Assembly: GCA_000182565.2 (NCBI GenBank)
Contig: KQ257455.1
Length of the DNA stretch: 64,000 nt
Source of the DNA: Spizellomyces punctatus DAOM BR117
Lineage: Eukaryota
Direction: 5' to 3' (one strand)
A program made the translations under genes and the position numbers. Each line of letters starts with the position of its first letter. Positions within the stretch are counted from its first letter, which is position 1. Shown here piece by piece: positions 3,001-35,951 of this stretch. The notes under the pieces were generated by a model. The model was not told the DNA's origin and made no database searches. It was given only the letters and a program-made list of their open reading frames with translations.

Positions 3001-4710
3001 CTCCTCAGCTCTTATACGCCTACTTTGGTGAATGTCGGACACGGTTTCTCGCAACCTGCTTCGCAATCGCCGTCGAGCGGCAGATATTTTCCTCTGCTGC
3101 TGCTCTTCGTTTGTCTGCAGTTCGGCTTGAATCTCAAGGTGCTGCAGATGCCGCTTTTCCTCAGCGATCTTATGTCGTGCGAGCTTCCTGTCCCGCAAGA
3201 TTTGCATCCACTTGTTTAGAACGACTTTCTCAGCCGCATCCATAACATCGGATTCATGTACCTTCTCGTCCAACGACCGGAGACGGTCCTGTTCGACCAG
3301 TAAAGTAAGATAGACATGCTGTAGCTTAAGCATAGCATCTTCCAGCACAGGTAGCCGGGAGGACGCTTCGGCCAGTACCATTTGATGGTGCTTATAATCT
3401 GCTACCAGTTGCTTGTAGCGCGGGAACAGGTTGAGTACCGGGTCGCAGGGCAAAACAAACGCAGAATCGTCACTGGTCGAATGCTTGCCTTCGGAACGAG
3501 TGCCTTCTTGCGGATGGTCGACAGCCCCTTTTGCATGTAGCTGGAGATTGGTGGACGGCAGACGCTTATCCACCTGCCATGTGTGAGCCTCTTTAGCGAA
3601 GCTTGTGATAGCCTTCTCCAGCTGAGGGATCTCCAACTTTGATTTCGTGTGAATTGTCTAAGATCAGACAACATAGGAACTGTCAGACATATTGAGTGAT
3701 GCTACGGATTTGCGCAGGAAAAGCTTCTGAGTACCTACTCGAAGATCAGCAATCTCTTCCTCTAATCTCCTGTACTCGGCCTCCTTTTCTAACACTGCAC
3801 GATCTCTCTTTGCAATCTTTCGCCTTATGGTTGCTTTCTCCTTTATTATCCGCATCTCTTCCTTTCCTCTAAAGAGACGCAGTCCTCCATCGGTCCAGCG
3901 TCTCTGTAAAACCCATCGTTCATAAGCTATTCGCTCTTTCAATGTCATCGCGCTCAGAACATCCAGGGCCTCCGTAAGGGGGTTCTGTAAGCACCAGGCC
4001 CCTTCATGCGACTCTCCCTCGACGGAATATCCAAATCCTTCGGAAGGTACCGGTGGTGGAGCAAAGCAATATCCGGGGAAAAGCATGCTATCCATCATTT
4101 GCCTCTCATTTGCGGATATCGGTGCGCTTGCACCTCCGGATTGGGAGGACAATATGCTTTGTTTTGACGACAATGACTTACTCATGATTGAAGCCCACAT
4201 GTTTGGCTGGTCCTGCCGGTTCGGTATATTTATCTGATCCATGTAAGTCTCATTACTCTTTGCGTTTGTAGGCAAGTTGCTGAAGGACTGGAAACTTCGA
4301 AGTGGTTGCGGCACTACGGTTTCGGTTGCACTTAGCAGAGAAGACGTGGATTGGGAGACAGACGGCCGTCCTATCGGTAATGTTAACTTCGCCGACGCTT
4401 TCAACAGGTCCGGTCGTATCAAGCCAGTTTGCCCAAATCGCTCATCAATAGAATTCGTTTGCAGAGCTTCCGTCTCATTCGGAGCCTGTAGGTTGTCCGC
4501 CTTGATCTCATTGCTGTTACTTCCAAAGGTGGCGGTTGTAATTGGGGCTTCAGTCAGAGCATTTGCATTGCCATTTGGCACTTCTTCCTTAGTAATACCA
4601 GAATTTTCCGTCTTGCTATCGCCTCCTGATATCGGGCTCTCCTTACTAGCTGACCAGTGCTCCCCTTTGTGGCTTTTGCGATGCTTAACGGCCGGTGATC
4701 TGCTGGCCAT
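1..4710 (-). CDS. CFAP74: CFAP74-like cilia/flagella-associated protein (coiled coil plus ASH/Ig-like domains); 3' end runs off the window
   Basis: The 3664-4710 ORF splices via an 81-nt GTAGGT...CTGAC...TAG intron (3738-3658) into a long frame continuing toward position 1. It contains a charged coiled coil, then PFTASPAAVVFEDYD...YVKRVTITNTS...FFAVQWDPSGPGGRMSAGKTCEIILTFTP, resembling the first ASH domain of CFAP74 as recalled. Confidence 0.72.
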
Positions 4711-10777: not shown

Positions 10778-11349
10778 TGTAACGGATTTTTTGTTGGTAG
10801 ACTACGGTAAAGACAACTTGGGTCTCCTAGCAGGTTGTGTGGGTGTCTGTACTAGGAATCGTAGTCTCCAAATCCTTTCTTTGGGCATCGGTAGTGACTT
10901 GAGGGCGAGAGGCAAGGAGAGTTGGTTAGTTGTGAACCGAGCAGGATTTAGAGGCTTCAGTGCAGGTGATCAGGCCATTGAAGTGCTCTGTTAGGTTCCT
11001 GTTAACCTAGGATTGGGGTTGAGAAGCTAGTTGTGGGGATTTTTTGTCACTACGGCTTCTGGCCGCCGACTTATTTTATTGAATTCCTCTTTTTATACAA
11101 GAATATGCTACGGTAACGTCTACACTAGTTTCTGTAGCCTTCATTAGGGTGGCGGCATCCGATCTTCCCATCTCAGACCATCACCATGATCGATCATGGC
11201 TGCATAACATATCCTTCACGCTGCGCTGGTGTAGCCCAGAACCGAGCTTGATCTTAGGGGTTTCGAAGCTTAGGTTACAATTGCGGAAACCTCAATCATG
11301 GTCACCTGATGCCTTTGAGCAAACCGGTTTATCAGAGTCATTTGCTACA
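10778..11349 (-). repeat. 3' LTR of Gypsy-1
   Basis: Direct repeat of 19040-19611; preceded on the minus strand by a polypurine tract at ~11350-11360. Confidence 0.95.
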
Positions 11350-11406: not shown

Positions 11407-14400
11407 CTACCATGACGCAACTGGATAGTCGTCGTCAGCTTCAAGGCTGTCTTCATTGATCATCCAGATTATGGTAGCGTGCCCCATGACGTTCGTGCAG
11501 AACCAAATTTGGTCAGTGGCTTCTGGAGCCAGGGTTCCAGGTGTCCTGGAACCGTTGGCTTGGGTTATGTAGAGGGCTGTGAACATCTCTGCGGCCCTTT
11601 TCAAGTTAACCGCTCGAAAGTGGTAATAGGCGTGCTCCCGATGTTTGGGACGGAGCTGCTCTTCTGTGGTTTCAGCTGCATTGGCTAGCTTTAACAACAC
11701 TGCTCTCGCGGCTTCAATGGCTATGTCCGCGAAATCGTGGGCCTCGCGATCAGGCCAGAGGGTGAAGCAGGCCGTTTTGGGGTTTCCGGCCGCATGTTGA
11801 GGGACCCCAGCGTCAAGCCAGGCAGCGCAGGGTACGTCCCGTAATCTCTTGCCTATCTTTTTTGCATCGGCAACGATACTGACAGCAGCTTGACCGCCGT
11901 CGGAAGCCCTACTGTAGGGCTCCGCGATATGCATCATGAGGGGCTGGCTCGTGGCGTAAGGCTTCAAAGCCCCGTCAACCACCCAATCTTCACCACGATA
12001 GTGTTCAAGGGTTTTGTTTGGGTCTTCATACAACTCACGAATCCAAACTTCGACCCAGGTGGCCATGGCTGCTCCGAGCTGCTCGATAGAGTTCTCGGCA
12101 GCGAAGGCGTCGCTTACTTCTGACCAGGGATAGCCTTCCTCAAGGGTAGAGAGGATGCTGACTCCTTGTTGTCCTCGGATATCGGTGGTCATGGTGTTGG
12201 AAATGAAAGCTTTTGTTTCGGTGTCGATAGAAAGGGTTTGCGAAGCAGAGTGATTGTGTAAGGGAAGTAGTTCGTTGGTAGTTGAAGATGAAAAAAGAGG
12301 GGGGGCAAGCAGGGGCGCCCTTTTAAGGTCGTCACCAGCTGATTTTGACAGCTCGGACATGCATAAGCGTGATCGGGAGGCTTGGTGTGGCGTTCTTGAC
12401 TGGTAAGGTAAGCCACGCGAAACTGGTTTTCTTTCTGGTGAGAGGGCATGATTATCACGTGAGCTATCGTCCGGATAAACCGCGAAGCATTGGTGGTCAG
12501 AAGCGTAAGCCGTATCTTCCGGGGCATTGCCTGCAAGGCTGACTACCAAAGAGTCCTCTACTAGCACGCTAGTGGGGGCTCTGGATCTCCAGTACTCTTC
12601 TAAGGCTTTGGAAGCCTCTGTTAGGGCTTCCTCTGGTTCCCAGGTATCCTCATGGGGTGGGTATCCGGACCAACGTATTCGAAATTGACATTTTCCGCGC
12701 CTGGTTTGATGGTCTACTATCGCTTCCACTTCAAACTTGCCCTCTGAAGCGTCGGAATCCTCTGCTTGTGCTTCCGCGACCTTTTCCTCAGTTTTGGCAT
12801 CGACAGGCTTCTGGTATGGACGTAATTTCGATATGTGAAACCATGGATGAAGTCATCTCATCTTGTCTGGCAGTTTTAACTCGTAGTTGTCGCGGAGAGG
12901 GTTACAGTCGGTCACCGTGACTGGTCCCAGCCATTTCGGAGCGATCTTGGACTCATACCCTGCTAGGTTTTTTGTGCTCAGAAGCACCTTATCTCCTCTC
13001 CGGAACTCCAAATGTCATCGCAATAAATCATAATATCTTTTCTGCGAATCCTGGGCTTTGATCATCAGATCTCAGATAAGGATGTTTAGGTCGCCGAGGT
13101 GTTTACAGAGCTCTTCCGCATCTGCATTTCTGGTTTCTGACGGCCTTTCGATGATATCCGCCAGTGGATTGTGGGGCTCATAGCCTAGGTCCATTCTGAA
13201 TCGCATCATTTTTGTCACCTCGTGTACCGTATCGTTGATAATGAATTCCGCAACCAGAAGAAAGGTGTCCCAGTCGTCTAATTGGGTGTTGACCATTGTG
13301 GTAAGGACCTGCAAGACCGTTGCGTTGTCTCTCTCTGATTGTCCATCACCTTGAGGGTGGTAGGCTGTGGTGAGCTCTTGATTAATCTTTAGGTTTTTGC
13401 AGACCTCCTGCCAAAATCGACTCGTAAACTTGGGGTTGCAGTCCGAGATAATAGTCTCCGGAATGCCATGCAATGGGACGTAGTGTTCTATAAAGAGTTC
13501 CATGACCTGAATAGCTGTCGCGGTGCTCTTGAGGGGCCATACGTGGATCCTCTTTGAGCATTTACATGCTATTAGCCAAAAGGCGTCGTACCCTCTGGAA
13601 GTAAGTGGGAGCTTGGTTATGAAGTCAGTCGTGATGAATGTCCAGCGTCCCGGAGCTGGTGGTATGGGTTTCAGCAACCCCGGAATCAGTTGCAGTACCC
13701 TTTTTGAGCGTTGACAGATTTCACATCCTGCGCAGTGTTTTCTGAAAGTTTGTGCCATCTTTGGCCACCAGACTTGTGCTGCGGCTCTGGCGTAGGTTCT
13801 TTCGAATCCGAAGTGTCCTCCCCCCTCATGAAAAAGCTTGCGCACCTCGGGGGTGCAAGCAGGGGGCACGTAGAGGCGCCAAAGGTCTTCGGAGACTGAA
13901 AAACGGTGCCACAGCAGGTTATCTGCATGTTGCCAGTCCTGAAGAAAGTGCGCGTCAGCTGTAGTGTAGGTGTCGGGGCTGGTCTCCCATAGGAGCGTGC
14001 GGGCCTGTTGGGCTATGGGGTGGAGCTGGCCGGTGAGGCCAGTGCGGATGGCGGCAATGAGTGCAGGCTGTAATGCCAGACAGAAGGCGGCATCTGCCAG
14101 TGTCGAGGAAGGTGCGAGAGCCGCTGGTGTGGTGCGCAGCCGTCGTCTTCCACGTTCCGCCACCCATATTTGGGTCGCGGTGGAGCAGAGGAGGGTTTCC
14201 GCTCCTAGTAGCCGTGAAAGTGTATCAGCGACAATGTGAAAACGTCCTGGTTTGTGAACGATTGTCATCCATTAAGACCAGTAACTAAGATCGAGGGCCC
14301 AGCGGAGAAGCTTATGGTTCTCGCCTTTGTATTTAGCGAGCCACAAAAGAGCTCGGTGATCGGTAATGACTGTGAAAGGCAGGCCTTCGAGGTATGGGCG

Positions 14401-17400
14401 GAGTTTTCCGAGGCCCCAAATGAGGCATCTGGCCTCGAGTTCGACAGGGGGGGCCTTCTTTTCCGAGGTGGTGGTGCCTCGGGAATGGTAGCACAGCGGG
14501 TGTTTAGAAGCATCCGGCTGTAACTGTTCGAGCATGACATTAAACGCTGTGTAGGAAGCGTCACTGTGAAGGGTGTAGGGGAACCCTTTTCTGGGTGCCG
14601 CAAGCACTGGAGCTGTTGTCAGAGCCTGCTTGGTGGCTGCGAAGGCAGAGTTTCGGGAATCGGTCCATGAAACTTCACGCTTCACGATAAATCTGCGCAG
14701 ACCTTGGTCGGGGCGCTTGCGAGCAAGGCGTCCGACACAAAAGGGGTCAATGGGCAAGTCCGCCAACGATGATTGGCGTAGATTGACCACCGGTAGGTCT
14801 GAGGAGCTAGATTTCGGATGTTGCGAAACCTCAAATCAGGCTCCAGTGGCTGTGATTGTAGGGGCCACCGCCGTGTCGAGCATGGATGGTGAATTGAGCT
14901 TTTCAGCGCCTTTCTTTGGGTCAGCGCGACCCTTTTTAAGGTCTTGGTATTCGCGAACGCCCTCTTGGATAGCGTCTTGCAGGGGTCGGACGAGTTCCGT
15001 GTAGTGGGGGATGAATTGGGCGTGGAACCCTAGGAGACCCACGAAGGACCATAGGTCACCTATGAATTTGGGTCATGGCCAATCGACTATGGTTGCAACC
15101 TTGTCTGGATCGGTAGCGAGACCCTGAGAGGAGGCAACGAAACCGAGAGCCGTGAGCTGGTGAAAGAGCCATTGACACTTGTCAAGTCTTAGGGTGAGTT
15201 TGGCTCTGGAAAAGCGGTCGAGCCAGTCCGCGATGGCGTCTAGGGCTTCCGCGGCTGTCTCCGCTCGTGTGTGGATATCATTGACGAAGTTGTTGATATT
15301 TCACCATTTGGAGGGACCCAAGGTGTCATCCATCACCCGACAGAAGTGCGAAGGGGCAGTCTTGGGTCCGAAGGGCATAAAGAGTGGTTCGTAGATGCCG
15401 TCATGGAGTCTGATCGCGAGCCATTTGCGTACCGATGCATCGGTGATGGCGATTTGGTAAAATCCTTTGTTTGCGTCACCTCCCGATATGTATCGGAATG
15501 GGACTGCAATGATCCAGTTCAGGATGTCGAGCATGATGGGAAAGGGATATGGGTCCCAGGCCATGCAGTCGTTGGCTCGGCGATAGTCGAAGGCTACCTG
15601 CGGGGGTTTGTCTGTGTAGCGAATGATAACAGGATCGCTGGCGAAGGTTACTTTGGTGGTTCGTTTCCACCTCTGAAGCCCCATCATGGTGTCTTGCTCC
15701 ATCTCGAGGGCTGTCTGCTCCAACAGAGAGTACGACCGTGGCCTCGAAAGGGGTGGCGGAGCCGAGATAAATCGAGGCGCATAAGGAATCTTGGTGTAGT
15801 TCCCTATGAGATGACCCTCATAGCTGAAGGCTTGATGGAAGTGTCGTAGAATGTTGATTAGGGCCCAGACCATGGGTTTGGGTCGCTTGAGATCGACGTG
15901 GAAATGTTCCGCGTCTTTTAATTGGGCTTTGAAGGCCCCTGGAGCCCTCTCCGTAGAGTCGAGGTTCCATTTGTTCCGAAGTGTCTGCCATTCTTCTTTG
16001 GAAATGTTCTCTTCGGGGTCCGCAACTGAATTATGGGTTGCGGTGGACAGTTTGAGGCCTAACGGGGCCGTTGAGCTAGCAGCAGTGGCCTCAAGAGGGT
16101 TTTCGATGAGAAAAGTTTGGGCTGCCATGTGCGTCTGTCCCGTGATTAACATGGTTAATCTAGACTTCTGAGCTTTGGCTTTGGTCAGCCGTGGCATTGA
16201 CACATCCTTCATGAATTCACCCTGCTTGGTCTTGTATGGCATGCCGCACATGTGATCAGTGTCCAGCTCATCCATTATGGAGCAAGGGATAAGGATGTCC
16301 GGATTCTTGAGCGTCACCACGAAACTGGGTAACGGGGGTTCCTGAACCAAGGTTTGGAGTTTCAAATGTCCCAGAACGTCGTTGGCTAGGATGATGAGAG
16401 GTTTCCCATATGCAATGACTCGGAAATAGGCACGGAAAGTCAGGTATTCTCCTCTGTGGCCTCTGAGGGAAGTTTCGAGGCATACTGTCTTGGTAGATGA
16501 GATACGTCCACCAATGCCTTTGAAAGCCATCGTTTCTGCATCCTGCAAATCAGTTTCGGAGAACAGAAGGCCCTGGTACGTGTCGGAAACCAGAGACTCG
16601 CAGGCTCCTGTGTCTAGTACCACAGGTGCCCAGAGCTGAGCGATGACGGCTAGCGTCCAGCAAGGCTGTGTTTGGGTCTTGGTCTGGCTTTTGAGTACAT
16701 CGCCTAAATCTACCGAGTAGAAGGCATTGATGGAAGGCACCGCGACCTCGAAATGGGGCGCGATGTCATTAATTGTTGCTTCCATAGCCTTGATCGCACT
16801 CTCAAAGTGCTCTCTAGATTTGTTGTTTTGTGGTTTTGTTGTTTTATTCTGGCGAGCAACTTGTTTGATAGCCAGCATGACTATACGCGTCCGTTCGCTC
16901 TCTTCGTGTCTTTGGAGACGTGGATGGTCTTTAACGTGCAGAAATTTGGGGTTTCCGCGATGATAATAATAGTCTGAGCGAATGATATTGCCTGTCAGGA
17001 GAAATGCCACCAGTTGCAGGTTGGCGTAAGAATCAAAGATAACAGGATCTTCGGAGCTCCACATCAAGAATTTCTCACGCTCATCGAGCCTTATCCAGGC
17101 AAGGAGGATCAAATGAGGGGTACCGTCTTCTCGGACTTTTCACAGGATTCGATCCTTGTCAGCTTCAGCTGCAGCAGCGATGTAGAGGTGGTGGGAACTC
17201 CACGCGACTGCGTAGGGGTCGTTCCCGAGGTGCCCGGCGCCTCGCTTCAGTTCTTTGGCGAAGAAGCTGAGCACGCGGGGGTTGTTGCCCATCATCAGAG
17301 CCACTTGCGGGGTGCCCCAGATGATGGCTATGTTGTCCCAGACTTGGTCCCAGCCCTGCGTGGGCGTGCGGGGGTCCTCTTCCTTAGTCTCCGTGACCTC

Positions 17401-18963
17401 GGAAAGAGGTGCGGTCATCAAAATTGTTGATTCTGAGTGCTTGGGTGAATGAAAGAATCTGATGGTGTGGAATCCTTGATTAGCGGCGGCTGTCCTTTCC
17501 AGTTCTGAAGCCAAAAAAAGAGTCTCGGTGGTAGCGGACGTCGAGTCCAGCTCCACTATGTAAGACTTCTTGGACTCCTGTTTGGGTTTCCAACCTGCGG
17601 GCGTGGGTGCTCCATATGGTCCTTTCTTTCCATCTTCAGGATCTTTTCGGTTCGGGTTCTGCCAGCAGAAAACATTCCAATGCTTTTTCTGACAGAATTT
17701 GCAGGGTGCTGGTGGTTCCTTGTTGGGGTCCGGAACCATCTTTTGAGGACCGTCACAACCCTTTTCGGGGTTTCCGGTTTTATGTTGAGCCGTCTGCTTA
17801 GGGCCTTTGTCGGTTCCAGTCTTTTGTGACTTCTTCTGAGCTTCAGCAGCACCGCTGTAGCAAGGGTCTCATTTTCTGGTGTCATCAGAGCCGAAATAAA
17901 GGCGCAGGAAGTCTTTTAATTTGGTCAGGTTCATGACGTTACAGGATTTGACCATGATTTGGATGTCGCTGGGCAATTGTTCGACTATTAGGTCGAAATG
18001 CTGGTCAGTGGGACATTCTATGTTTGCCCGGTCGCCGTATGCGAGGCGCTGGAGATGAGTTTTGTGGTCAATGAACACGAGAAAGCTGCGAAATTCTTTG
18101 GGGTTCACGTGGCAGCGCACATATTCAGTTTTGCACTTGGACTCGGTTAGGGGATCTCGGAACTCTCGAAGCAGTTCTTCTTTCCACCTTTTCCAGGTCC
18201 ACGAGCGAGTTTCCTGGGCTTCCAGAGTGTAAAACCAAGCGTCGGCAGGGGTTTTCTCGGCTATCATGGCTGGTAGGAGCTGTACCATCCTGGCATCCAA
18301 CGTTGCGCTAACATTTTGAAGAAGTTGGACTTTGTTGAGCCATTCTTCAACGTCTTGGTTTCTTTTGCCCATAAACTCGGGTACGTCCTTTGCTTTCAAG
18401 GAATCGACCTTGGTGTCGCTGGCCCACAGGGCCGCTGGCACTTGGATTGGAGGCACCGGACCTGAAAAACTTGGTTCGGTATGCTCCCTTGGTGTGTCCG
18501 ATGTTTCCCACGGGGTTGTGGACCGTTCTCTTGTAGCTCGTGCTATGAGAGGTTGTTCAGGCAGCAGGCGATGTGCTAGGGCTTCTAAGGCTCGTGCGAG
18601 GCGCTCATCTGCCGCTGTCTGACGTTCGGAAAGCCTATGAAGCTGTTCCGTAAGATTTTGAGTTGCCAACTGCGTTGCAGCAGTCGAGCGGGCAATGTCT
18701 TCTTTTAACGCTGCCACTTCAGAGGCCATCGTGGCCAAGTTAGGGGCTTCCGGTTTGACGGAAGTGGTCCCTGAACGCCTTGGGCATGTTGCGGGAGGGA
18801 CTTCGACATCCTCTGCAGGACCCTGACTACGAGTCTGGATCACAGGTGAGCGGCCTCGCATTGGAGAGCATTCGACCGGCATCATTCTCGGTTTCATGAA
18901 GTCTGTTTCCGAAACGAGAGAAAAGGTTTCCGAGTAGCTACCTGAGCGGATCTCGGTTTGCAC
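11407..18963 (-). pseudogene. Gypsy-1 single-frame gag-pol polyprotein (Gag, CX2CX3HX4C knuckle, MTase-like insert, PR, RT, RH, INT, chromodomain, C-terminal extension)
   Basis: ORFs starting at 18963, 17739, 17112, 15042, 14790, 14268 and 12729 share one frame and are separated only by stops (8 TGA and 1 TAA counted). Motifs: VLDTGA (PR); MPFGPKTAPSHF and FVND (RT); LHSDAS and ITDHRAL (RH); GHFG, CEIC, TDFITKLP, PQGDGQSER (INT); FEVEAI..RWSGY..TWEP (chromodomain). Confidence 0.92.
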
Positions 18964-19039: not shown

Positions 19040-19611
19040 TGTAACGGATTTTTTGTTGGTAGACTATGGTAAAGACAACTTGGGTCTCCTAGCAGGTTGT
19101 GTGGGTGTCCGTACTAGGAATCGTAGTCTCCAAATCCTTTCTTTGGGTGTCGGTAGTGACTTGAGGGCGAGAGGCAAGGAGAGTCAGTTAGTTGTGAACT
19201 GAGCAGGATTTAGAGGCTTCAGTGCGGGTGATCAGGCCGTTGAAGCGCTCTGTTAGGTTCCTGTTAACCTAGGATTGGGGTTGAGAAGCTAGTTGTGGGG
19301 ATTTTTTGTCGCTATGGCTTCTGGCTGCCGACTTATTTTATTGAATTCCTCTTTTTATACAAGAATATGCTACGGTAACGTCTACACTAGTTTCTGTAGC
19401 CTTCATTAGGGTGGCGGCATCCGATCTTCCCATCTCGGACCATTGCCATGATCGATCATGGCTGCGTAACGTATCCTTCACGCTGCGCTGGTGTAGCCCA
19501 GAACCGAGCTTGATCTTAGGGGTTTCGAAGCTTAGGTTACAATTGCGGAAACCTCAATTGTGGTCACCTGATGCCTTTGAGCGAACCAGTTTATCAGAGT
19601 CGTTCGCTACA
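19040..19611 (-). repeat. 5' LTR of Gypsy-1
   Basis: Same length as the left LTR; about 24 substitutions by manual alignment. Confidence 0.95.
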
Positions 19612-20244
19612 ACAGCATATTGTTACAATAGGCAGCAGGGACAAGAAGACTAGGAAGCCTTGGGGAAAACTTGGTTATTCTATTAGAGGGGGGTGTGGCA
19701 ACACTCCCTTTTTATAGACCAAAATGCCAAGGCTTCAGTTTTATCTCTAACCAATGAAAAGACTTCTAAACTAGTGAGTCACAATGTATCCTCCTTATCT
19801 TTGCAGTAAAAATTATTTTCTGCAGCTCAGGAATGTTGGGGAAGTCAAGAAATAGGTGTTATCCTACAACTAGACTGGATGCACCTGAGAGGTGGATAGC
19901 CATGTTAGAAGCTATGCCATCGCTAGAGAATGTCTCTGTGGACTTTGTGTCAAAAGAGCAGTGAAAGAGTTATATTACAGAAAGAAAAACGGGGTCCTAA
20001 ATATAGTACAGATCACATGATGACAACCTGACTTTGACCTCTAATTTTCGGGCGCATAAAGCAACTAACTAAGAAGGTGTTTTGACAAGCTTGTAGCGCG
20101 GATTCAGGGCTTTCCAGAACCATCTTGGTCTTGTTGATAAGTTAATAACTCGCTAAGTTATTCAAGTTACCGTCCCATGGCAACTTCAATGAAATCAATC
20201 AATTAATTCCAACACTTCCCCTCGCCCAAAATTCCATTCTATTC

Positions 20245-22842
20245 TTAGGCTCTTTTGTTTGTCACATCATCCAGTGATTGAACGCCAAGTTCTGCACAAC
20301 ACTGGGTGAACCTCGGTGCAGGAATGGCCTTGGTAAGAACATCTGCAGTCATCTGTTGAGTGGGGCATCTTCTAACTGAAATCTCGCCACTCTGGATGTG
20401 TTCCCTGAGGAAATGATAGCGTATATCAATATGTTTTGTCCGTTGCGAAATCAGGGTGTTCTTTGCCAGTTCCATCGCGCCATTGTTATCCATTTTGAGC
20501 ATGGTAGGGCGTTGTTTGACTTCCAAAAACCCGAGCTCTGCTAAGAGGTTTCTCATCCAAATAACCTCTCGTGCACAATCTGATGCCGCAATATACTCTG
20601 CCTCAACTGTGGAGAGTGCTGTGCATCTCTGCTTTGAAGATTTCCAAGCAATAGCGCCACCTGATAGCTTGAGAAGCCATCCTGAGGTTGACTTCCTATC
20701 TGAGAGGTCTCCACCCCAATCTGCATCGGAATAGGCTTCCAGATTGTAGCTGTTTTGCTGATAAACAAGCCCGTAGCTTGCTGTCTTTTGCAGGTACCGA
20801 AATATCCTCTTTACGCCCATCCAGTGCATGTTTCCAGGCACCTCACAGTGCCTAGCAAGTATCCCAACTGCTGTACTGATGTCAGGTCTAGAGGCAATTG
20901 CAGCAAACATCAAGCTGCCTATTGCACTGCAGTACTTCAATTTATCTACCATGGGTTGCCTTGACCCAAGAGCCTCAAATCAAACAGAGGTATCCAGTGG
21001 GGTTGACACTGGGTTTGAGTTTTCCATCTTGAGTCTTCTGAGCACTTCACCAATGTAATGTGCTTGATCCAGGGAAAGAATGCCATGCGGTTCATCTCTG
21101 ATTACCCTTAAACCCAAGATATGGTGGATAGGGCCAAGATCCTGCATCTTAAATTGCACTGACAATGTTGGTTTGACCCAATTCATGTCCTCTTTTGACT
21201 TGGTTGCAATAACCAGATCATCAACATAAACTGCCAGTATGATGTGCCATTTGTTTATGTTTGTGCACTCATCTTTCTCATGTGGTTTCACTTCCTGAAC
21301 CTCTTCCCCTTGCCAAATGTAAACACAAGGCTCGTGCACCAGTTGTTTAAAGCTGTTTTCGAGGAGGTAGGCATGCAGGGTATGGTTCCATAGCCTTCCA
21401 GCTTGCTTCAAACTGTAGAGACCCTTCTTCAACAAGCAAACAAACTTGTCTGGTGGGTGCTCTGTTGAAATTCCTAGGGGTTGCTCCACATACAGCTCTG
21501 AATCAACCTCGCCATTCAGAAATGCTGTTGCAACATCCATTTGATCCAATAAAAGCCCATGCTCTGCTGCCAGGGCAAAGATCAGTCGCAGAGCAGGGAA
21601 GGAGATGACGTGTGAAAAGGTCTCATCATAGTCCAATCCATGGATTTGACTGTACCCTTTGGCTACAAATCTTGCTTTGTGCCTTTCTACAGTGCTGTCA
21701 GTCTTCCACTTTGTTTTATAGACCCATTTGCTGCCAATTACAGGCCTTCAAGAGGGTCTGGGGACGATTTCCCACATCCCATTTTCAACCAGTGATGCAT
21801 ATTCAGCCTCCATGGCTTGCATCCAGGCTTCTTTCTGGGGTGATTGCAGCGTGCCATTAAGTGTTTTCAGGTCTTCATGGCCGAAACCTTCTTGCTGCAT
21901 CTCCAGATCTGTGGTGGTGGTGGTGGGGGGTCCTGAAGGCATTCCTAGGTGTGCATGGAAGGCGTCAACATCATTGTTTTCTCCTTCCAAATCACTGGGG
22001 AAATGCTGCTGTTCCCAGAGGTCAAGTGCCACAGTGTCCTTGACATGCTCCAATGGCTCCCAAGTACTCTCAGTTCTGGGGTAACCCTTCCATTTGACAA
22101 GGTAGTATGTCTCGTTGCCTTGTTTATCCTCAGCAAGGATCTCCTCCACAGGGAACTCCTGCTCTTCTTCTTCCAGCAGTGAACCCATTGGTTCAGAGCA
22201 TGCGTCAGATTGCCCTTTAACTGCCTCATCAAATGCCACATCCCTAGACTCCAAGATGGTGTCATTCTGGGGATTCCACAGTCGATAACATCGTGAATTT
22301 TGCCCATAACCAACCAGAATCAACTTTGCTGATGTGGGATCCAGTTTTCCTCATAGTTGCTTCGATATTTGCATGTAGGCGACACATCCAATTGCTCTCA
22401 GATGCTCTACATTAGGGTGCGCCCCTGTCAAGGCCTCAGAGGGGGTAATCTTCCTCTTCAGCAGCGCCTTGGTCGGGCTCAAATTCCTCAAATAATTGGC
22501 AGATTCCCAGACTTCTGCCCACAGCTTCTGGGGAAGGTTATTCTCGTGCAGAATAGACTGAAACATATCCTCCAGAGTCCTGTTCAATCTCTCAGCAGCT
22601 CCATTCTGCTGGGGAGTATAGTGCATCATAGTTTGGTGGGTGATGCCCTCAGATTTGAGGTAGGCATCAAACTGGTGGTTCATAAACTCACCACCGCCAT
22701 CAGTTCTGAATGCCTTGATTGTCCTTTCAGTCAGATTCTCGATCCAGGCCTTAAATTCCTTGAACTTTTCTAGGCACAACATTGCTGATTTCGAGTTGAG
22801 ATAGAAGCATTTGCTATATCTGCTTCCAAGATCCAAGAATGT
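20245..22842 (-). pseudogene. Copia-B pol 3' part: integrase core, chromodomain, RT, RNase H
   Basis: FRTDGGGEF and PQQNGAAER (INT); FPVEEIL..YLVKWKGY..STWEP (chromodomain); KARFVAKGY, QMDVATAFLNG, VYVDD (RT); YSDADWGG, TKHIDIRYHF (RH). One frame with three TGA stops. Confidence 0.92.
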
Positions 22843-23341
22843 TATTGAAACTTAGCGCTTGGAACACTGATTTCCCGTGTAGAAATCACTTCTGAAAGAC
22901 CTAGTAATGCCTGTGGCCGCTAGTAAGACTTCTGGGTGCAGTAACTTGTGGGATAACATGCTTGTATTAATCCAGAGACGTGCAAAAGCCCCCTTTATAT
23001 AACCCAGTACATTCTCCAGCCTCCCTCCGCCTTTGTTTACTGTTTACATGCTTCAGCCCACTTGTTTACATGCTCAGCCATGCTCAGCAGTGCTCAGCAG
23101 TGCTCAGCAGCTTCAGCCATGCCTTGGCAAACATTACCTGAAGATCTAGATCATCACAAACCTTCCAGACCTTCTAAGAGTGCTTACATGATGATTTACC
23201 CCTTTAAATCATTCCCACGCGCGTCTGTGATCATTCTGATTACTCTAAGTCCAATTCCCCACGTTGTAACTTATCCACATCAGATGTGAACTGTCTATGA
23301 CATCCCAGCATGATCTCACATGATTTATAGATCATACAGCG
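22843..23341 (-). repeat. Partial Copia-A LTR ending at an assembly gap (redundant copy of 23657-24155)
   Basis: 22628-23341 is repeated starting at 23442, across the N run. Confidence 0.8.
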
Positions 23342-23656
23342 NNNNNNNNNNNNNNNNNNNNNNNNNNNNNNNNNNNNNNNNNNNNNNNNNNNNNNNNNNN
23401 NNNNNNNNNNNNNNNNNNNNNNNNNNNNNNNNNNNNNNNNNATAGTTTGGTGGGTGATGCCCTCAGATTTGAGGTAGGCATCAAACTGGTGGTTCATAAA
23501 CTCACCACCGCCATCAGTTCTGAATGCCTTGATTGTCCTTTCAGTCAGATTCTCGATCCAGGCCTTAAATTCCTTGAACTTTTCTAGGCACAACATTGCT
23601 GATTTCGAGTTGAGATAGAAGCATTTGCTATATCTGCTTCCAAGATCCAAGAATGT

Positions 23657-26352
23657 TATTGAAACTTAGCGCTTGGAACACTGATTTCCCGTGTAGAAAT
23701 CACTTCTGAAAGACCTAGTAATGCCTGTGGCCGCTAGTAAGACTTCTGGGTGCAGTAACTTGTGGGATAACATGCTTGTATTAATCCAGAGACGTGCAAA
23801 AGCCCCCTTTATATAACCCAGTACATTCTCCAGCCTCCCTCCGCCTTTGTTTACTGTTTACATGCTTCAGCCCACTTGTTTACATGCTCAGCCATGCTCA
23901 GCAGTGCTCAGCAGTGCTCAGCAGCTTCAGCCATGCCTTGGCAAACATTACCTGAAGATCTAGATCATCACAAACCTTCCAGACCTTCTAAGAGTGCTTA
24001 CATGATGATTTACCCCTTTAAATCATTCCCACGCGCGTCTGTGATCATTCTGATTACTCTAAGTCCAATTCCCCACGTTGTAACTTAGCCAAATCAGATG
24101 TGAACTGTCTAATGACATCCCAGCATGATCTCACATGATTTATAGATCATACAGCGTGGTTTAAGCCTGAATCTCAACAAGTACTTTGCCCCACCATGAC
24201 TTGGTGTCTTCATGGGCCCACACACATCACTGTGAACCACCCCCAGCAGTAGAGCTGCTCTAGCTGCTTCTCCCTTTGGAAAGGGACGCCTGGTGATCTT
24301 TCCAATGGCACAGGCTTCGCATGGTGATGTTTCTGTGTGACTCTTGACCTCCAGACCGCTTCCCAGCTGGTTCCTAGCCAAGATTTTGATGCTGTTGACG
24401 TTCAGGTGTCCTAACCTGCGATGCCAGAGGTCCAAACTCATTCCAGAGGCTATGTTTGCATGTTCTCTTGCATGAAACATGTATAGACCGCCACCTAGAG
24501 TTCCCTGGATTGCTTCCTGACCATCTGAAGTCTTGATACAGCATCCCTTGCTGCCAAACTCAACTTTGGCACCATTTTCAGTGGCTCTTCTTACTGAAAA
24601 CAAGTTCTTTTCAAGCTTGGGAACAAACCACACGTCTCTGAGGGTACAGAATCGGTTTCTGCCTGTCTCAAGTGTGATCTGGCCCTTCCCTATTGCCTGA
24701 ACTGTTCTGTTGTCCGCCAGATGGACTTGAATTGGTGACATCTCCATGTAATTGGTCATCCAATCCTTCCTGTGTGACATGTGCTGTGAAGCACCCGAGT
24801 CCACAATCCACCAGACTGCTCCCTGAGAAGTTTTGGTGTCATCTCCTGACTGAGCAAAGAATAGGAACTCATTCTGAGTTGCCTGACTGGTGCTGGCTTG
24901 ATTGGCTTGTTGTTTGGTGTCCGCCAGAAACTTCCTGCAGTCCTTCTTGAAGTGACCCTTCTTGTTGCAATAGAAGCACTTCCCTGCTATCTTCTTGGTC
25001 CCACCATGCTTGCCAACCTTCTGCCCGCCATCCCTGCTGAAAAAGGCCTTCCCTTTGCTATCTCCTTCACCCCCAGCTTCCTTCCTGCGTGTTTCTTCAT
25101 GCAAAAGCCGTGATGTGAGGAATTCCAGTGTCAGAGAATCACTCCTGGCCTCCAAAGACACCACCAGCTGTTCATAACTCTCTGGTAGGCTGTAGAGTAG
25201 GGTGATGACTTGGTCTTCTTCACTGACTGGCGCCCCAATGGCCTCCAACTGCTGAGCCATTGTCCTGACCGTGTTTATGTGTCCCAACATGCCCCCAGCG
25301 CCGTCTTCCATCTTCAGAGTGAGAAATTTCCTCCTTAGATAGAGCCTACTGGCAATTCCCTTCCTTTGGTGGATGTCACTGAGCTTTAACCAGGCCTTCT
25401 TTGCAGTTACAGCGGTCTGTACATGCATGAGTTGGGCATCACTCAGTGACAGAGCAATTACTGCCATTGCCCGCTCATCCCTTCTCCTCCAATCCTTCTC
25501 AGAGGTTCCCTCCATGCTCTCATCTCCTTCAATCACACCCCACAGCCCCTTTTCCTTCAGCAACATCGTCATTTTGAGCTTCCAGAGGTGGTAGTTCATG
25601 CCGTTGAACTTTTCCATTGTGAGTTTGGTGTCCAAGTCCGTGTTTGACATGTCTGACCTGATTTGGTGAATGGATTTGCCGTTGGGGAAGAGGTGAAATC
25701 GTCCTGGTGTGGTAGGTGGTCCAAATATGAGGTTGGGAAGAGGATAGGTCCGTCAGGAAGATGGTGTGGCCGTCAGAAAAGAGATTTGAAGCAGGAAAAT
25801 ATCAGTGATAGCTATCAGGGCTCATAACCTATTGAAACTTAGCGCTTGGAACACTGATTTCCCGTGTAGAAATCACTTCTGAAAGACCTAGTAATGCCTG
25901 TGGCCGCTAGTAAGACTTCTGGGTGCAGTAACTTGTGGGATAACACGCTTGTATTAATCCAGAGACATGCAAAAGCCCCCTTTATATAACCCAGTACATT
26001 CTCCAGCCTCCCTCCGCCTTTGTTTACTGTTTACATGCTTCAGCCCACTTGTTTACATGCTCAGCCGTGCTCAGCAGTGCTCAGCAGTGCTCAGCAGCTT
26101 CAGCCATGCCTTGGCAAACATTACCTGAAGATCTAGATCATCACAAACCTTCCAGACCTTCTAAGAGTGCTTACATGATGATTTACCCCTTTAAATCATT
26201 CCCACGCGCGTCTGTGATCATTCTGATTACTCTAAGTCCAATTCCCCACGTTGTAACTTAGCCAGATCAGATGTGAACTGTCCAATGACATCCCAGCATG
26301 ATCTCACATGATTTATAGATCATACAGCGTGGTTTAAGCCTGAATCTCAACA
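23657..26352 (-). mobile_element. Internally truncated Ty1/Copia element (Copia-A1) inserted in the Copia-B integrase
   Basis: 523-bp LTRs at 23657-24179 and 25830-26352; AATGT TSD; PBS GGTTATGAGCCCTG; carries only gag, PR and the integrase N-terminus; no PPT. Confidence 0.92.
24109..25650 (-). CDS. Copia-A Gag (UBN2-type, CCHC knuckle), protease and GAG-pre-integrase; reads into the LTR
   Basis: FNGMNYHLW, LLYSLPESY, CFYCNKKGHFKKDC, WIVDSGASQHM, LWHRRLGH, CEAC, HSDVCGP. The last ~23 aa are LTR-derived. Confidence 0.9.
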   Translation of the reverse strand: MSNTDLDTKLTMEKFNGMNYHLWKLKMTMLLKEKGLWGVIEGDESMEGTSEKDWRRRDERAMAVIALSLSDAQLMHVQTAVTAKKAWLKLSDIHQRKGIASRLYLRRKFLTLKMEDGAGGMLGHINTVRTMAQQLEAIGAPVSEEDQVITLLYSLPESYEQLVVSLEARSDSLTLEFLTSRLLHEETRRKEAGGEGDSKGKAFFSRDGGQKVGKHGGTKKIAGKCFYCNKKGHFKKDCRKFLADTKQQANQASTSQATQNEFLFFAQSGDDTKTSQGAVWWIVDSGASQHMSHRKDWMTNYMEMSPIQVHLADNRTVQAIGKGQITLETGRNRFCTLRDVWFVPKLEKNLFSVRRATENGAKVEFGSKGCCIKTSDGQEAIQGTLGGGLYMFHAREHANIASGMSLDLWHRRLGHLNVNSIKILARNQLGSGLEVKSHTETSPCEACAIGKITRRPFPKGEAARAALLLGVVHSDVCGPMKTPSHGGAKYLLRFRLKPRCMIYKSCEIMLGCH

Positions 26353-28355
26353 AATGTGAGCACATATCTGGCTCCACCAAGCGATTTGGTGCGCATTGGT
26401 CCACATATGTTGCTACATATGACCTCCAAAAGCTGGTAACTCTTCTTGGGTGATTCAGGAAAGGGCAATCGCATTTGTTTACCCTTCTGACATCCATCAC
26501 AAAGCTGGTCTTCAACCACTGCTTTGCCATCAAAATTAAGACCATCAACCATACTGGTGAGCATCTTCAAATTGCCATAACTTAAATGGCCTAAGTGCCA
26601 ATGCCACAGCTTCAGTTTCCCACCATCCTGCTTCTCAGGGCGACCCAAACCTTGGTCTTCATGCTGTACTTCAGCTCCCATCACTTGGGAGTCACAGCTC
26701 ATGCTGCCAGGGTAAGCAGCAAGCTTGTAAAGCTCCCCTTCCCTGTTTCCTGCAGCAAACAATCGCTTATCTAGATGGAATTCCACTCCTCCAGACTGCG
26801 AAAAGGTGACATCCATGCCATTGTCAATAATGGCTCTGATAGACAGAAGATTGCAGCCCAACTCTGGGGCATACAGGATGTCCTGCAACACCACCTGCCG
26901 TCGATGTTGTTGTCCTGGAGTCTCCAACTCCAGGGGGATAGTGCCAATGCCTTCTGCATTGATAACTTCATCATTTGCAAGCACAATTTGTCATGAAATG
27001 GGCCTCAGATTGACAAAGAGTTCTTTGTGGGGACTCATATGCTGGCTACAGCCCGAATTGACTATAAATTGGACCTTCTTGCTGTAAGATTGCTGTGGTA
27101 GCTTCCTGCTAATCAAAGCAATGGCTTTTGCATTGTCCTGTTGACCATCCATTTGTTTATCCACAGCCAGCTTGGCTGTACTGTCTCCCTTGGCTGTTCC
27201 AGTGGTTTGTGACCCGCTCTTCTCCTTCATGGCACATTGGTATGCAAGATGGCCTGGGTTCCCACAGGTAAAACAGGTCTTCTGCATCGTCTGCTTCTTG
27301 CCATTGGTGCCATTGGTCACCTTTCCATAGCTCTGGGAGTTGTGGGACTGTTTCTGGTCGTCATATTGGTTCGTCTTAGCCACATTGACATGAGCTTTCG
27401 TCCCCTGCTTTGACTGGTTGAATACCCATGGGTTGTTGATGTATTCCAGTCTCAAAACAGCCAATTTGAGCATCTCCATGCTGTCCAAGTTCGATGGATT
27501 TGCCTCAATGCTGGCTCTCAAATCCTTGCACAATCCTTGCAGGAATAATACCTTCATCACCTCGTCATGCAGCACTGTTGTTTGCATGGATAGATTGGTG
27601 AACTGGTCAATAAACTCGACAATGGTGAGGTTCTCTGTGTCCTGAGAGATGTTGAAAAGTCTCTCCAGAGTTTTCCTCTGGTAATCTGGGGGTGTGAAGT
27701 GCTCAAGCAGAGCCTTCCACAGCTGACTCCAAGTCCTGATTCACCTTGGATCATCCTCCTCAACCTCTGTGAGGTGGTTCCCCCAAAAAACCTCTGCAGA
27801 ATCCTTCAGCTTCAACGTGGCAACCTTCAGTTCCAGTCTGGGGGGCAGTTCTGCTATGCTGAAGTACTCTTCAAGTTTGCGCACAAACTCTAGCAGCTTA
27901 TTAGTGTTGCTACCACCATGGTAGCGAGGGACTTCTTCCCTCAAAGTCTGTAGCACCTGCTTCTCTTCCTCATGAGAGAATGTGCTCCAAGAGCCTACTG
28001 ACTTGATATCTGCATCCCTATGCCTCAAGTTCTGCTCTGGTTTGAATGGCGCCTCCTGCACCATCATAGGAAGTGTTTCTGCGGCTCTAGCTGGCTGGGT
28101 TTGGGTCCTCTGTCCCAAAACTTCCTGAATATTGTTCAGAAGCTCTCTTCTGAACATCCTCATCTCGTCCTTGAACTCCAAAAAGGACTCCTGAGTGAGG
28201 TACTGGGGCTCGTCTTGAGCTTCCAGGTAACTACTGATGTCATCGTCCTGAGCTTGCTGAGCTTCCCTTCTGGTGTGCTCTTCAATCTCCTCAAACTGAC
28301 CAGAAACAGACATCTTTCTCTTTCCCTTTTGTGCTGATGTTCTGTCCAGGGGCAT
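26353..28355 (-). pseudogene. Copia-B 5' part: Ty3/Gypsy-like Gag, zinc knuckle, Copia protease, integrase N-terminus
   Basis: Three same-frame ORFs split by TGA at 27741 and 26991. Motifs: VPRYHG..FVRKLEEYF, TWSQLWKALLEHF, FLQGLCKDLR, CFTCGNPGHLAYQC, FIVNSGCSQHM, CNLLSI, LWHWHLGH, CDGC. Confidence 0.88.
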
Positions 28356-29509
28356 CCTTTGCTTCTGGTTTCAATACACTGCTCAGTAGTTTATATTCGC
28401 GTTGTTCTCAGCTGTCTGACAGGCAACCAGGGCTCATAACCTGTTGGGGAAGTTGAGAAATAGGTGTTATCCTACAACTAGACTGGATGCACCTGAGAGG
28501 TGGATAGCCATGTTAGAAGCTATGCCATCGCTAGAGAACGTCTCTGGGGACTTTGTGTCGAAAGAGCAGTGAAAGAGTTATATTACAGAAAGAAAAATGG
28601 GGTCCTAAATATAGTACAGATCACATGATGACAACCTGATTTCGACCTCTAAGTTTTGGGCGCATAAAGCAACTAACTACAAAAGTGTTTTGACAAGCTT
28701 GTAGCGCGGATTCAGGGCTTTCTAGAACCGTCTTGGTCTTGTCAATAAGTTAATAACTCGCTAAGTTATTCAAGTTACCGTCCCATGGCAACTTCAATGA
28801 AATCAATCAATTAATTCCAACAAGGAAGGGGAATTTGTTTCAGACACATGTCTCTGATGCACATTTTGCTTTCAGGAGCATGACTTGCTTAATTTAGGTA
28901 AATCAACCTTTAGACATGCCTTCTTACTAACACTTGTTTCAGAGATGTGCACCTGCCATTTTAAGACTAAAACCCTAACCCTAACCCTAAGTCCAAACTA
29001 CTATACTACTGATACTACTAACTGACCAACTAACTAAAGACAAAGTAACTAACAGAAGAATTCTGTTACACATATCTACCATCACTCACACACATTCAGT
29101 CCTGCATAATATGGGATAGTGGAACTATATTAGGGTATATGGAATTTCATTCTTGTAAATATATGCCAGCACCTTTGGTAATTCCTCCAGACTTATACCT
29201 ATTTATCTACCTCTCCAGGCTATAACCTTGCATTAATCCTCTATAATTGGGTAAAATAATTAATATATATTATAATTTACTTCAAGACCTGAATCATGCA
29301 GAAGCTGCAGGAACCACCATGGTAGTAGGTATTTTTTATAATAATAATAATCAGTACCTAGCATCAGATTGGGGAAAACTGGGCAAGCTTACAAGGCATA
29401 GAACATATATCCACATATTATACAGGCAAGAAGATCTATATTTATCTGCAAATGGCTTCTCAAGCTGAGACTCAAGGCAGATAGCTCTGTACAGCCGCAC
29501 AAAGCAACC

Positions 29510-29691
29510 CCAGTAAATCTGAAGTGGAACTCCTTCTTGGTTGCTGTGGTGCTTTCTCTGCATCCTAAAATTTGTCACCAGTAGTTTCTGATACTGAAGA
29601 CTCTTCTGGAGTGATGCTAGATGGCCTCTTAGTTTCTCCATCTGTATGTGGCCCTTGTTCATCATCCAAAGTTTAAGCTTTCCCTCCCAGA
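29510..29691 (-). mobile_element. Degenerate fragment of a Copia-A-related INT-RT linker
   Basis: Translates as ETKRPSSITPEESSVSE, matching ETQRPSSITPDNSSASE in 32460-34307. Confidence 0.65.
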
Positions 29692-30148
29692 TATTGAGAT
29701 TCTGGCTTAAACCACGCTGTATGATCTATAAATCATGTGAGATCATGCTGGGATGTCATTAGACAGTTCACATCTGATTTGGCTAAGTTACAACGTGGGG
29801 AATTGGACTTAGGGTAATCAGAACGATCACAGACACGTGTGGGAATGATTTAAAGGGGTAAATCATCATGTAAGCACTCTTAGAAGGTCTGGAAGGTTTG
29901 TGATGATCTAGATCTTCAGGTAATGTTTGCCAAGGCATGGCTGAAGCTGCTGAGCACTGCTGAGCATGGCTGAGCATGTAAACAAGTGGGCTGAAGCATG
30001 TAAACAGTAAACAAAGGCGGAGGGAGGCTGGAGAATGTACTGGGTTATAAAAAGGGGGCTTTTGAACATCTCTGGATTAATACAAGTGTGTTATCCCACA
30101 AGTTACTGCACCCAGAAGTCTTACTAGCGGCCACAGGCATTACTAGGC
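29692..30148 (+). repeat. Copia-A LTR in the opposite orientation, 3'-truncated by the LTR-C insertion
   Basis: Reverse complement of the 523-bp LTR-A, missing about the last 55 bp. Confidence 0.9.
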
Positions 30149-30637
30149 TGTAACAGGCTAGCAGGGACAAGAAGACAACAGAAAACTAGGGAAGACTTGG
30201 TTACTCTTGTTATTTTTCTTTGAGGGGCCTCAGAGAGGTCCTCTTTTTATAGACAAAGGGGCTGACAAATGCTATATCCTAACTACCCAATCAGATCTCA
30301 CCCACATCATCCTAAACTATTTGTCAGCCTATTGCACCATTTGCAACCAATCAGAACTCATACATGTCATCCTAAACTATTTGTCAGCCTATTGCACCAT
30401 TTATAGCCAATCACAAGTGAGACAAATCATCCTAAATACACTGTGCCACTTGATTGAAAGGGGCAGATGCCAGTGTGTCAGGATACTCATCTAATTTAGC
30501 CAGAAATGGCTAAATCTGCTTATTTATCTAATTCTGGTCAAATGAATGTTGACACCATCAGCAAAGTCATGTGCCCACTAGTTTGGAACCACATCTAACC
30601 AGTATAACCATAGCACTGACAGAAGAATTCTGTCACA
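30149..30637 (-). repeat. LTR family C (489 bp) with an internal 60-bp CCAAT-containing tandem repeat
   Basis: TGTAACA...TGTCACA ends; unit ccaatcag...tcatcctaaactatttgtcagcctattgcaccattt repeated about 2.5 times at ~30287-30436. Confidence 0.8.
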
Positions 30638-35400: not shown

Positions 35401-35951
35401 CAGGAAAAATATCAGTGATAGCTATCAGGGCTCATAACCTATTGAACTTAGCACTTGGAACACTGATTTCCTGTGTAGAAATCACTTCTGAAAGGCCTAG
35501 TAATGCCTGTGGCCGCTAGTAAGACTTCTGGGTGCAGTAACTTGTGGGATAACACGCTTGTATTAATCCAGAGATGTTCAAAAGCCCCCTTTATATAACC
35601 CAGTACATTCTCCAGCCTCCCTCCACCTTTGTTTACTGTTTACATGCTTCAGCCCACTTGTTTACATGCTCAGCCATGCTCAGCAGTGCTCAGCAGCTTC
35701 AGCCATGCCTTGGCAAACATTACCTGATGGTCTGGATCATCACAAACCTTCCAGACCTTCTAAGAGTGCTTACATGATGATTTACCCCTTTAAATCATTC
35801 CCACATGCGTCTGTGATCATTCTGATTACTCTAAGTCCAATTCCCCACGTTGTAACTTAGCCAGATCAGATGTGAACTGTCTAATGACATTTCAGCATGA
35901 TCTCACATGATTTATAGATCATACAGCGTGGTTTAAGCCTGAATCTCAACA
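32466..35951 (-). mobile_element. Copia-A2: 5' LTR (35440-35951), PBS, gag, internal deletion, then integrase-RT; 3' end lost
   Basis: Gag is nearly identical to 24109-25650 up to LADNRT, then jumps to (M)GQKIKTLRSDNGGEY. RT motifs QMDVKTAFLNG and LYVDD. Ends abruptly at PGHQHWIA against the Gypsy fragment. Confidence 0.9.

Follow-up and report, generated by a model that had tools for sequence, protein, structure and literature searches.

A probable DIRS-type Dam-like domain, without its catalytic motifs, in the Gag-Pol of a chytrid chromovirus

What is the segment of about 150 residues that separates the nucleocapsid-like zinc knuckle from the protease in a Ty3/Gypsy element of the chytrid Spizellomyces punctatus? 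The question is raised by a long terminal repeat (LTR) retrotransposon of 8.8 kb, lying on the minus strand at 19611-10778 of a stretch of 64,000 nucleotides from strain DAOM BR117 (contig KQ257455.1 of assembly GCA_000182565.2); this whole stretch is called the window here, and all features of the element given below are on its minus strand. A single reading frame, from 19113 to 11410, carries in order gag, the segment in question, protease (PR), reverse transcriptase (RT), RNase H (RH), integrase (IN) and a chromodomain. A sequence-only reading of the locus had seen in the segment a degenerate version of the Dam-like methyltransferase (MT) domain of DIRS retroelements. Our analysis indicates that it is probably a strongly diverged descendant of the DIRS1-type Dam-like (‘MT’) domain within the Gag-Pol of a spizellomycete chromovirus lineage, and that it would now be a non-catalytic module.

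A conserved domain between zinc knuckle and protease

Translation of the minus strand at 16840-17442, with X at the TGA codon, reproduces letter for letter the peptide on which the sequence-only reading was built, from GWDQVWDNIAIIWGTPQVALMMG to HLILLAW. The peptide is read through one in-frame TGA (17140-17142), a column occupied by Gln in P0008, a S. punctatus protein of 618 amino acids (aa), and by Asp in the Geranomyces proteins. It lies 115 residues past a zinc-knuckle-like motif of the form CX2CX3HX4C (CKFCQKKHWNVFC, 17665-17703), identical in P0008 although Pfam zf-CCHC was not detected there, and about 95 residues ahead of the aspartic protease active-site motif VVLDTGA (16603-16623), which is kept in P0004, P0005 and P0008. 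Its placement between knuckle and protease was thus correctly read. As to extent, the peptide itself, ending at 17095, stands, but the end of the domain had been put at 16990 and alignment with relatives carries it on to about 16909. The conserved domain so delimited covers about 150 aa (16909-17361, polyprotein residues 585-735) and closes with ...LQLVAFLLTGNIIRSDYYYHRGNPKFLHVKDHPR.

Relatives of this domain are few and closely confined. A full HMMER search of 1.84 billion representative proteins (E<=0.001) gave four matches, three of them real and all fragments of chytrid Gypsy elements; the fourth, a bacterial repeat protein, was judged spurious. A word-indexed search with the family profile gathered six proteins, all of them hypothetical proteins of Spizellomyces punctatus or Geranomyces. 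With phmmer, the window domain matches Geranomyces P0004 at E 3e-23 and P0005 at E 6e-20. The Geranomyces proteins display WG(S/L)P(L/H)IDLFAD, then ...LLYAH(V/I)..., then the protease, and in all database relatives, which are Gypsy fragments, the domain lies upstream of the protease. In P0008, knuckle, domain and protease follow each other in one stop-free open reading frame (ORF), the domain being 90 % identical to that of the window. Hence, in uninterrupted relatives the Dam-like domain is co-translated with the protease. Another relative, P0003 (86 % identical), begins downstream of the domain.

Other searches added little to this set. Polyprotein residues 560-760 found no homologue among proteins of 1107-3525 aa in the word-indexed search, and the family profile found nothing at E<=10 among proteins of 81-261 aa. 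The ESM Atlas, queried with the whole of P0005, gave no usable match. Within the window, tblastn of the domain returned only the self-match, and the other ORFs that reach 110 aa, 90 in number, showed no DIRS element and no Pfam Dam match. In contigs from other sequencing runs, many related copies are present, 90-99 % identical over the domain region. Two runs guessed to be RNA also contain contigs of low depth that resemble parts of the domain at 90-99 %; we do not count these as evidence of expression.

Homology to the DIRS-type domain and to phage Dam

To what is this chytrid family related? DIRS-type domains for comparison were collected by scanning metagenome contigs for a degenerate DNA pattern that encodes W-G-x-P-x-(I/V/M)-D-(L/F)-F-A, which yielded at least 120 loci. 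Thirty-nine had at least 125 aa past the motif; three of these (L039, L045 and L074) were dropped as non-retroelement and the remaining 36 were used. The pattern in most loci is WG.P..DLFA...N.K.P.(F/Y).S...DP.A...DA....W....YAFPP..L...VL.K.......ILIAP.WP...W(F/Y)..L..L......LP....LL.Q......HP.....L.AW.LS. In the 23 longest ORFs of the set, RVT_1 is found upstream of the domain in 21 and an RNase H-type match in 12, which is the pol layout of DIRS elements. DIRS1-like elements are indeed described as having RT-RH-MT in pol, the function of MT being stated as unknown (PMC3266345). The catalytic triplet is not uniform in this collection: most domains have YAFPP and not NPP, and L044 and L053, with INPP and AHPP, also have a longer C-terminal part.

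The chytrid family matches this set over most of its length. The hidden Markov model (HMM) of the 36 sequences scores Geranomyces P0004, P0005 and P0007 at 47.1, 42.7 and 39.6 bits (positions 2-113), and hhalign of the five-member chytrid family against the same set gives a probability of 98.3 % (E 1.3e-14, 130 columns), in a match that takes in the last strand (LTAFLLTGN against L.AW.LSG). When the DIRS set is trimmed through DLFA, hhalign still gives 93.8 % (E 1.8e-7, 105 columns), and the trimmed HMM scores the three Geranomyces proteins at 22.3, 17.1 and 14.5 bits; of 2000 shuffles, 1665 obtained a score, and none exceeded 8.9. Since the trimmed matches persist, the homology between family and DIRS domain is independent of the motif used for collection. 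In tblastn, P0004 aligns with DIRS-type loci at E 1.5e-8 over 148 aa, and P0004 and P0005 match dozens of these loci.

For the window copy by itself, the 151-aa domain scores 16.6 bits with the full DIRS HMM, where 1000 shuffled versions of it reach 7.1 at most, the signal coming mostly from the N-terminal WGxP part. Its resemblance to the DIRS domain exceeds chance and is real but thin, becoming solid only via the Geranomyces intermediates. Could the segment instead be a spacer peculiar to this lineage, placed between gag and protease and resembling DIRS or Dam by accident, with no relationship to them? Such an explanation could draw on the window copy, which on its own loses significance once the WGxP segment is set aside, and on the lack of support from Pfam, the PDB or Foldseek. 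It is nevertheless largely refuted, and we consider it highly improbable, as the Geranomyces proteins match the DIRS profile along its whole length, even after removal of the selecting motif, and reach dozens of DIRS-type loci in tblastn.

The link to phage Dam is more distant. For this comparison, 13 annotated phage Dam genes were chosen from the spread of 2076 phage records that match one such gene. Starting from one NPP-bearing DIRS piece, tblastn against phage genomes gave E>=1 only; at least 16 of 20 among the matches listed fall on annotated DNA (N6-adenine) methyltransferase genes, mostly of near-identical Vibrio phages so that few are independent. Profile comparison is clearer: hhalign of the 36 DIRS-type sequences with the 13 phage Dam gives 97.0 % (E 8e-11, 99 columns), in a register placing DLFA opposite ‘D.aA’ and YAFPP opposite ‘w.NPPY’. 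Of the 36 DIRS-type sequences, 19 weakly match the Pfam Dam family (PF05869), the best at E 1.6e-5, and the DIRS-type profile has no match in the PDB. A chain can therefore be drawn from the window to Geranomyces, from there to the DIRS-type domain and finally to Dam, each step of which is significant, its ends not being directly linked. The Dam-like DIRS identity given by the sequence-only reading is accordingly sustained as homology through the Geranomyces intermediates, but not as a direct match to Dam or to its Pfam family.

Structure prediction was of limited help. AlphaFold2 (AF2) with the window peptide alone gave a useless model (predicted local distance difference test, pLDDT, 40). 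With the five-sequence alignment, pLDDT rose to 53.3, with a predicted template modelling score (pTM) of 0.56, and a core at residues 60-130 reached 58-83 with five strands. With this alignment-based model, Foldseek gave no PDB match below E 0.09 and, in BFVD, none at E<=0.001 (best 0.034); T4 Dam and E. coli Dam came up at E 0.34, alongside acetyltransferases and proteins of other folds. Taken together, the structural results lean slightly toward the fold expected of a Dam-type domain. The match to a methyltransferase profile foreseen by the sequence-only reading was therefore obtained with the DIRS profile at the level of the family, whereas its structural counterpart, a PDB match at E<=0.001, was not returned by Foldseek for a model of this low confidence.

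Several of our results weigh against the DIRS assignment. No Pfam family, Dam PF05869 included, is matched at E<=10 by the region or by P0001, P0004 or P0005; PHROGs gave no useful match with the five family members; and PDB sequence searches, whether started from the single protein or from the family profile, yielded chance rows only (E>=0.13). Direct hhalign of the chytrid family with the 13 phage Dam reaches 3.9 %, which is not significant. In the trimmed DIRS HMM the window copy scores 4.0 bits, within the shuffle range (maximum 8.9), and the two Spizellomyces sequences alone align with the DIRS set at a probability of 6 %. Moreover, the DIRS set was itself selected by WGxPx(I/V/M)D(L/F)FA, so that scores obtained before trimming are inflated. 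The assignment of the window copy to the DIRS domain is thus one of transitive homology.

Catalytic motifs and possible role

Would such a domain still transfer methyl groups? The sequence-only reading had stated that both the DLFA and the NPP/FPP positions are replaced, and the alignments agree. WGTPQVALMM (17290-17319) is the counterpart of WGxPx(I/V)DLFA, with ALMM in place of DLFA, and an AAA triplet (17167-17175) occupies the (N/F)PP columns in the family alignment and in the hhalign register. These changes could have been a private decay of the window copy, a possibility ruled out by P0008, which has both: it reads RGTPQVALMM, with the same VALMMG, and AAA is present in both Spizellomyces copies. 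In Geranomyces the (N/F)PP columns carry HVH, HVA or HIH. Chytrid relatives with intact motifs, which the sequence-only reading had thought worth looking for, therefore exist for one motif and not for the other: DLFA, whose D aligns with the conserved D of Dam, is kept in Geranomyces and lost in Spizellomyces, but the (N/F)PP triplet is missing from five of five aligned family members. By comparison, the second P of the triplet never varies among the 36 DIRS-type sequences, at least 90 % of which also have the first, while NPPY is found in 12 of the 13 phage Dam, the exception being NCPY. Methyl transfer by the domain is unlikely, since (N/F)PP is missing family-wide and Spizellomyces has also lost DLFA.

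It could be argued that the domain is still an active methyltransferase, or another enzyme dependent on S-adenosylmethionine, with a non-canonical active site. The Geranomyces proteins retain the D of IDLFAD, opposite the conserved D of ‘lD.aA’ in phage Dam, and the first position of the triplet is already tolerant, most DIRS-type domains having FPP and not NPP. A recent preprint on Dam domains in Ty3/Gypsy elements (Fernandez-Moreno et al., bioRxiv May 2026, doi 10.64898/2026.05.21.726589) also reports more N6-methyladenine (6mA) on Dam-carrying LTR elements. Nevertheless, the PP pair that is invariant or nearly so in DIRS-type domains and present in 12 of 13 phage Dam occurs in no member of the chytrid family, the Spizellomyces subfamily lacks the D as well, and even motif-intact eukaryotic Dam domains yielded no 6mA when expressed in E. 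coli (doi 10.64898/2026.05.21.726589). Taking these points together, we regard persistent enzymatic activity as very unlikely.

If not catalysis, what could have maintained the domain? Between Spizellomyces and Geranomyces it is 37.9 % identical over 140 aa and the protease 48 % over 83 aa, whereas the flanking linkers show 25-33 % identity over just 18-47 alignable residues. The five-member alignment contains 39 invariant columns, including the C-terminal LLTGN strand and a KVR.D.TP..IL block. The family also multiplied after the motif changes, because the two Spizellomyces copies share VALMMG and AAA and many contig copies are 90-99 % identical. As the domain is better conserved between genera than its flanking linkers, there is moderate evidence that it has been retained in a non-catalytic role.

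The opposite view is that of a neutral relic, captured once by an ancestral chytrid chromovirus, then inactivated and now decaying with no present role. Spizellomyces has lost both hallmark motifs, and none of the five aligned members has the PP pair; the window copy is a pseudogene with nine internal stops; and the family is small in databases. All this would fit simple decay, which is however difficult to reconcile with a domain that remains alignable over 140 aa where neighbouring linkers barely are, with its invariant columns and with the amplification of the element after it had lost the motifs. In addition, one would expect a compact retroelement to shed a useless in-frame insert of 150 aa. 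We therefore consider the relic explanation unlikely, though less so than continued activity.

Retention as a non-catalytic module is thus the interpretation that we prefer, and it could be envisaged as follows. A Dam-like domain would have been incorporated into the Gag-Pol of a chromovirus lineage, between the nucleocapsid-like knuckle and the protease; methylation would then have been lost, the domain persisting as a pseudo-enzyme that still serves the element. Made within Gag-Pol, it may act by binding and not by catalysis, with the replication intermediate or chromatin as its target, and in a 6mA-rich host it could keep nucleic acid bound or bring in the 6mA machinery of the host. Three further points belong with those already raised against our interpretation: the loss of catalysis is deduced from motifs only, the conservation above that of the linkers concerns few sequences from two genera, and the binding or recruiting function is putative, as is the reuse for nucleic-acid binding suggested by the sequence-only reading.

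The host element, its neighbours and known systems

The remaining parts of the element leave little doubt about its class. Its LTRs form a 572-bp direct repeat with 95.8 % identity, the 5′ copy at 19040-19611 and the 3′ copy at 10778-11349. The gag region (17872-18729), defined by position only, runs from the first Met (MASEVAALKED) to an in-frame TGA at polyprotein residue 415, and a Pfam search detected no gag family in it. Downstream of the protease, the RT core (15274-15492) is supported by a weak RVT_1 match (E 0.0041, below cut-off), and its YxDD box has decayed to FVND, immediately downstream of a stop. RNase H (14284-14667; RT_RNaseH_2 E 5e-24, RT_RNaseH E 3e-23) and integrase (13354-13869; Integrase_H2C2 zinc domain E 3e-17, rve core E 5e-8) come next, followed by an HP1-type chromodomain in the pol frame (12586-12735), which matches Pfam Chromo at E 1.5e-15 and the HP1, CDY and MPP8 chromodomains of the PDB at E values down to 3e-10. 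The same open frame continues into a C-terminal tail of about 390 aa (11410-12585), for which neither a Pfam family (E<=10) nor a PDB sequence match was obtained, the PDB matches being confined to the chromodomain. All domains detected by Pfam share one frame and no frameshift is apparent.

Given the order PR-RT-RH-IN and the chromodomain, the element is a Ty3/Gypsy chromovirus. The Gypsy gag-pol named by the sequence-only reading is thereby confirmed, the LTR pair, the order of pol domains and the chromodomain being in agreement. The window copy is an old, dead insertion, as judged from the divergence of its LTRs, the nine in-frame stops between 11410 and 19113 and the decayed RT box. Differences between this element and the related contigs are mostly transitions, which fits deamination of methylated cytosines or a process like repeat-induced point mutation, in a fungus reported to have 5-methylcytosine on its transposons.

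Other transposons lie close by. Chromodomains are a feature of Ty3/Gypsy elements. At 20983-22851 on the minus strand the window also holds a Ty1/Copia-type element (RVT_2 E 3e-60) with a chromodomain (Pfam Chromo E 1.2e-12), located directly past the integrase SH3-like domain and ahead of RT. It belongs to a nest of Copia and Gypsy fragments at 19834-36400, in which several repeats are 94-100 % identical (for example 22628-23341 with 23442-24156, and 24698-26352 with 34307-35951) and which includes a second Gypsy pol at 30581-32470. This transposon-rich island adjoins a CFAP74-like gene (1-3657). Further on, the interval 37112-38749 contains a direct repeat of 769 bp whose two units (37112-37880 and 37981-38749) show 100 % identity, their starts being separated by 869 bp; the sequence between the units gave no coding match.

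How does the element compare with known systems? Like other chromoviruses it has LTRs, a pol in the order PR-RT-RNase H-IN and, C-terminal to the integrase, a chromodomain of HP1 type; it differs from them by the extra 150-aa Dam-like domain before the protease and by the tail of about 390 aa past the chromodomain. A survey of the literature on chytrid or Spizellomyces chromoviruses, or on LTR elements with adenine methyltransferases, brought nothing pertinent.

With the MT domain of DIRS1-like elements, the chytrid domain shares an N-terminal helix with WGxP, a D..xxW block, an LYA strand and an (R/K)VLxK(V/I) helix, followed by an (L)IL(V/I) strand, a P..LP turn and a final L.A(W/F).L(S/T)G strand. 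It lacks the (N/F)PP triplet and the AP.WP..W block of DIRS, and the Spizellomyces copies also lack DLFA. The setting is different too: in DIRS1-like elements the domain closes pol, past RT and RNase H, whereas the chytrid domain is placed between gag knuckle and protease, and DIRS are tyrosine-recombinase elements whereas the window element has a DDE integrase. Phage Dam (PF05869) would be the ultimate ancestor by transitive homology only. Its catalytic motif NPPY is missing in the chytrid family and its conserved D in the window copy, and in no functional sense is the family a member of Dam.

The closest parallel is provided by the ‘DAM-LTRs’. The sequence-only reading had considered the host element unusual, a view overtaken by the preprint cited above, in which the DIRS Dam domain is reported to have moved at least four times into Ty3/Gypsy elements. 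The five DAM-LTR lineages described come from green algae, an ochrophyte, ichthyosporeans, a red alga and Euglena; among them, a single lineage is chromovirus-like, and Asn-Pro-Pro is conserved. DAM-LTRs favour hosts with AMT1 and 6mA, and the authors propose that LTR elements captured the DIRS Dam domain repeatedly as a means of exploiting the 6mA chromatin of their hosts (doi 10.64898/2026.05.21.726589). Like them, the chytrid family joins a Ty3/Gypsy-type LTR element and a Dam-like domain, probably derived from DIRS, in a 6mA-rich host. In contrast, DAM-LTRs keep Asn-Pro-Pro and pass the hmmsearch threshold of the screen (E<1e-5), whereas the chytrid family is devoid of PP and of any Pfam Dam match at E<=10. 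The words fungi, chytrid, gag and protease are absent from the main text of the preprint, whose supplements may list fungal hits or positions; relative to DAM-LTRs, the position before the protease may or may not be new.

S. punctatus is a suitable organism in which to pursue these questions. It has high 6mA on expressed genes and 5-methylcytosine (5mC) confined to transposons, and matched DNA and RNA were sampled for 6mA profiling (PMC12695648); according to a title cited in the same paper, it is culturable and transformable. One may speculate that spizellomycete chytrids carry a sixth, fungal lineage of Dam-LTR elements missed by motif and Pfam screens, with a pseudo-enzyme ahead of the protease that would be kept for binding the replication intermediate or for recruiting AMT1-type 6mA machinery, and that could give insertions an ‘active gene’ mark in a genome otherwise placing 5mC on transposons. 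We put this forward as a tentative and rather doubtful proposal.

The finding thus adds to a kind of element just described: a fungal chromovirus lineage, with a Dam-like domain before the protease and the catalytic triplet lost. Screens based on HMM thresholds probably under-count the domain, since little more than half of the DIRS-type sequences touch Pfam Dam, at E 1.6e-5 or weaker, and the chytrid family not at all. The family also offers a counter-example to the stress laid by the preprint on a conserved pocket, the domain being kept in Gag-Pol and conserved between genera although pocketless. This suggests that the value of the domain to retroelements may not be methyl transfer, which would fit the negative activity assays reported for DAM-LTRs.

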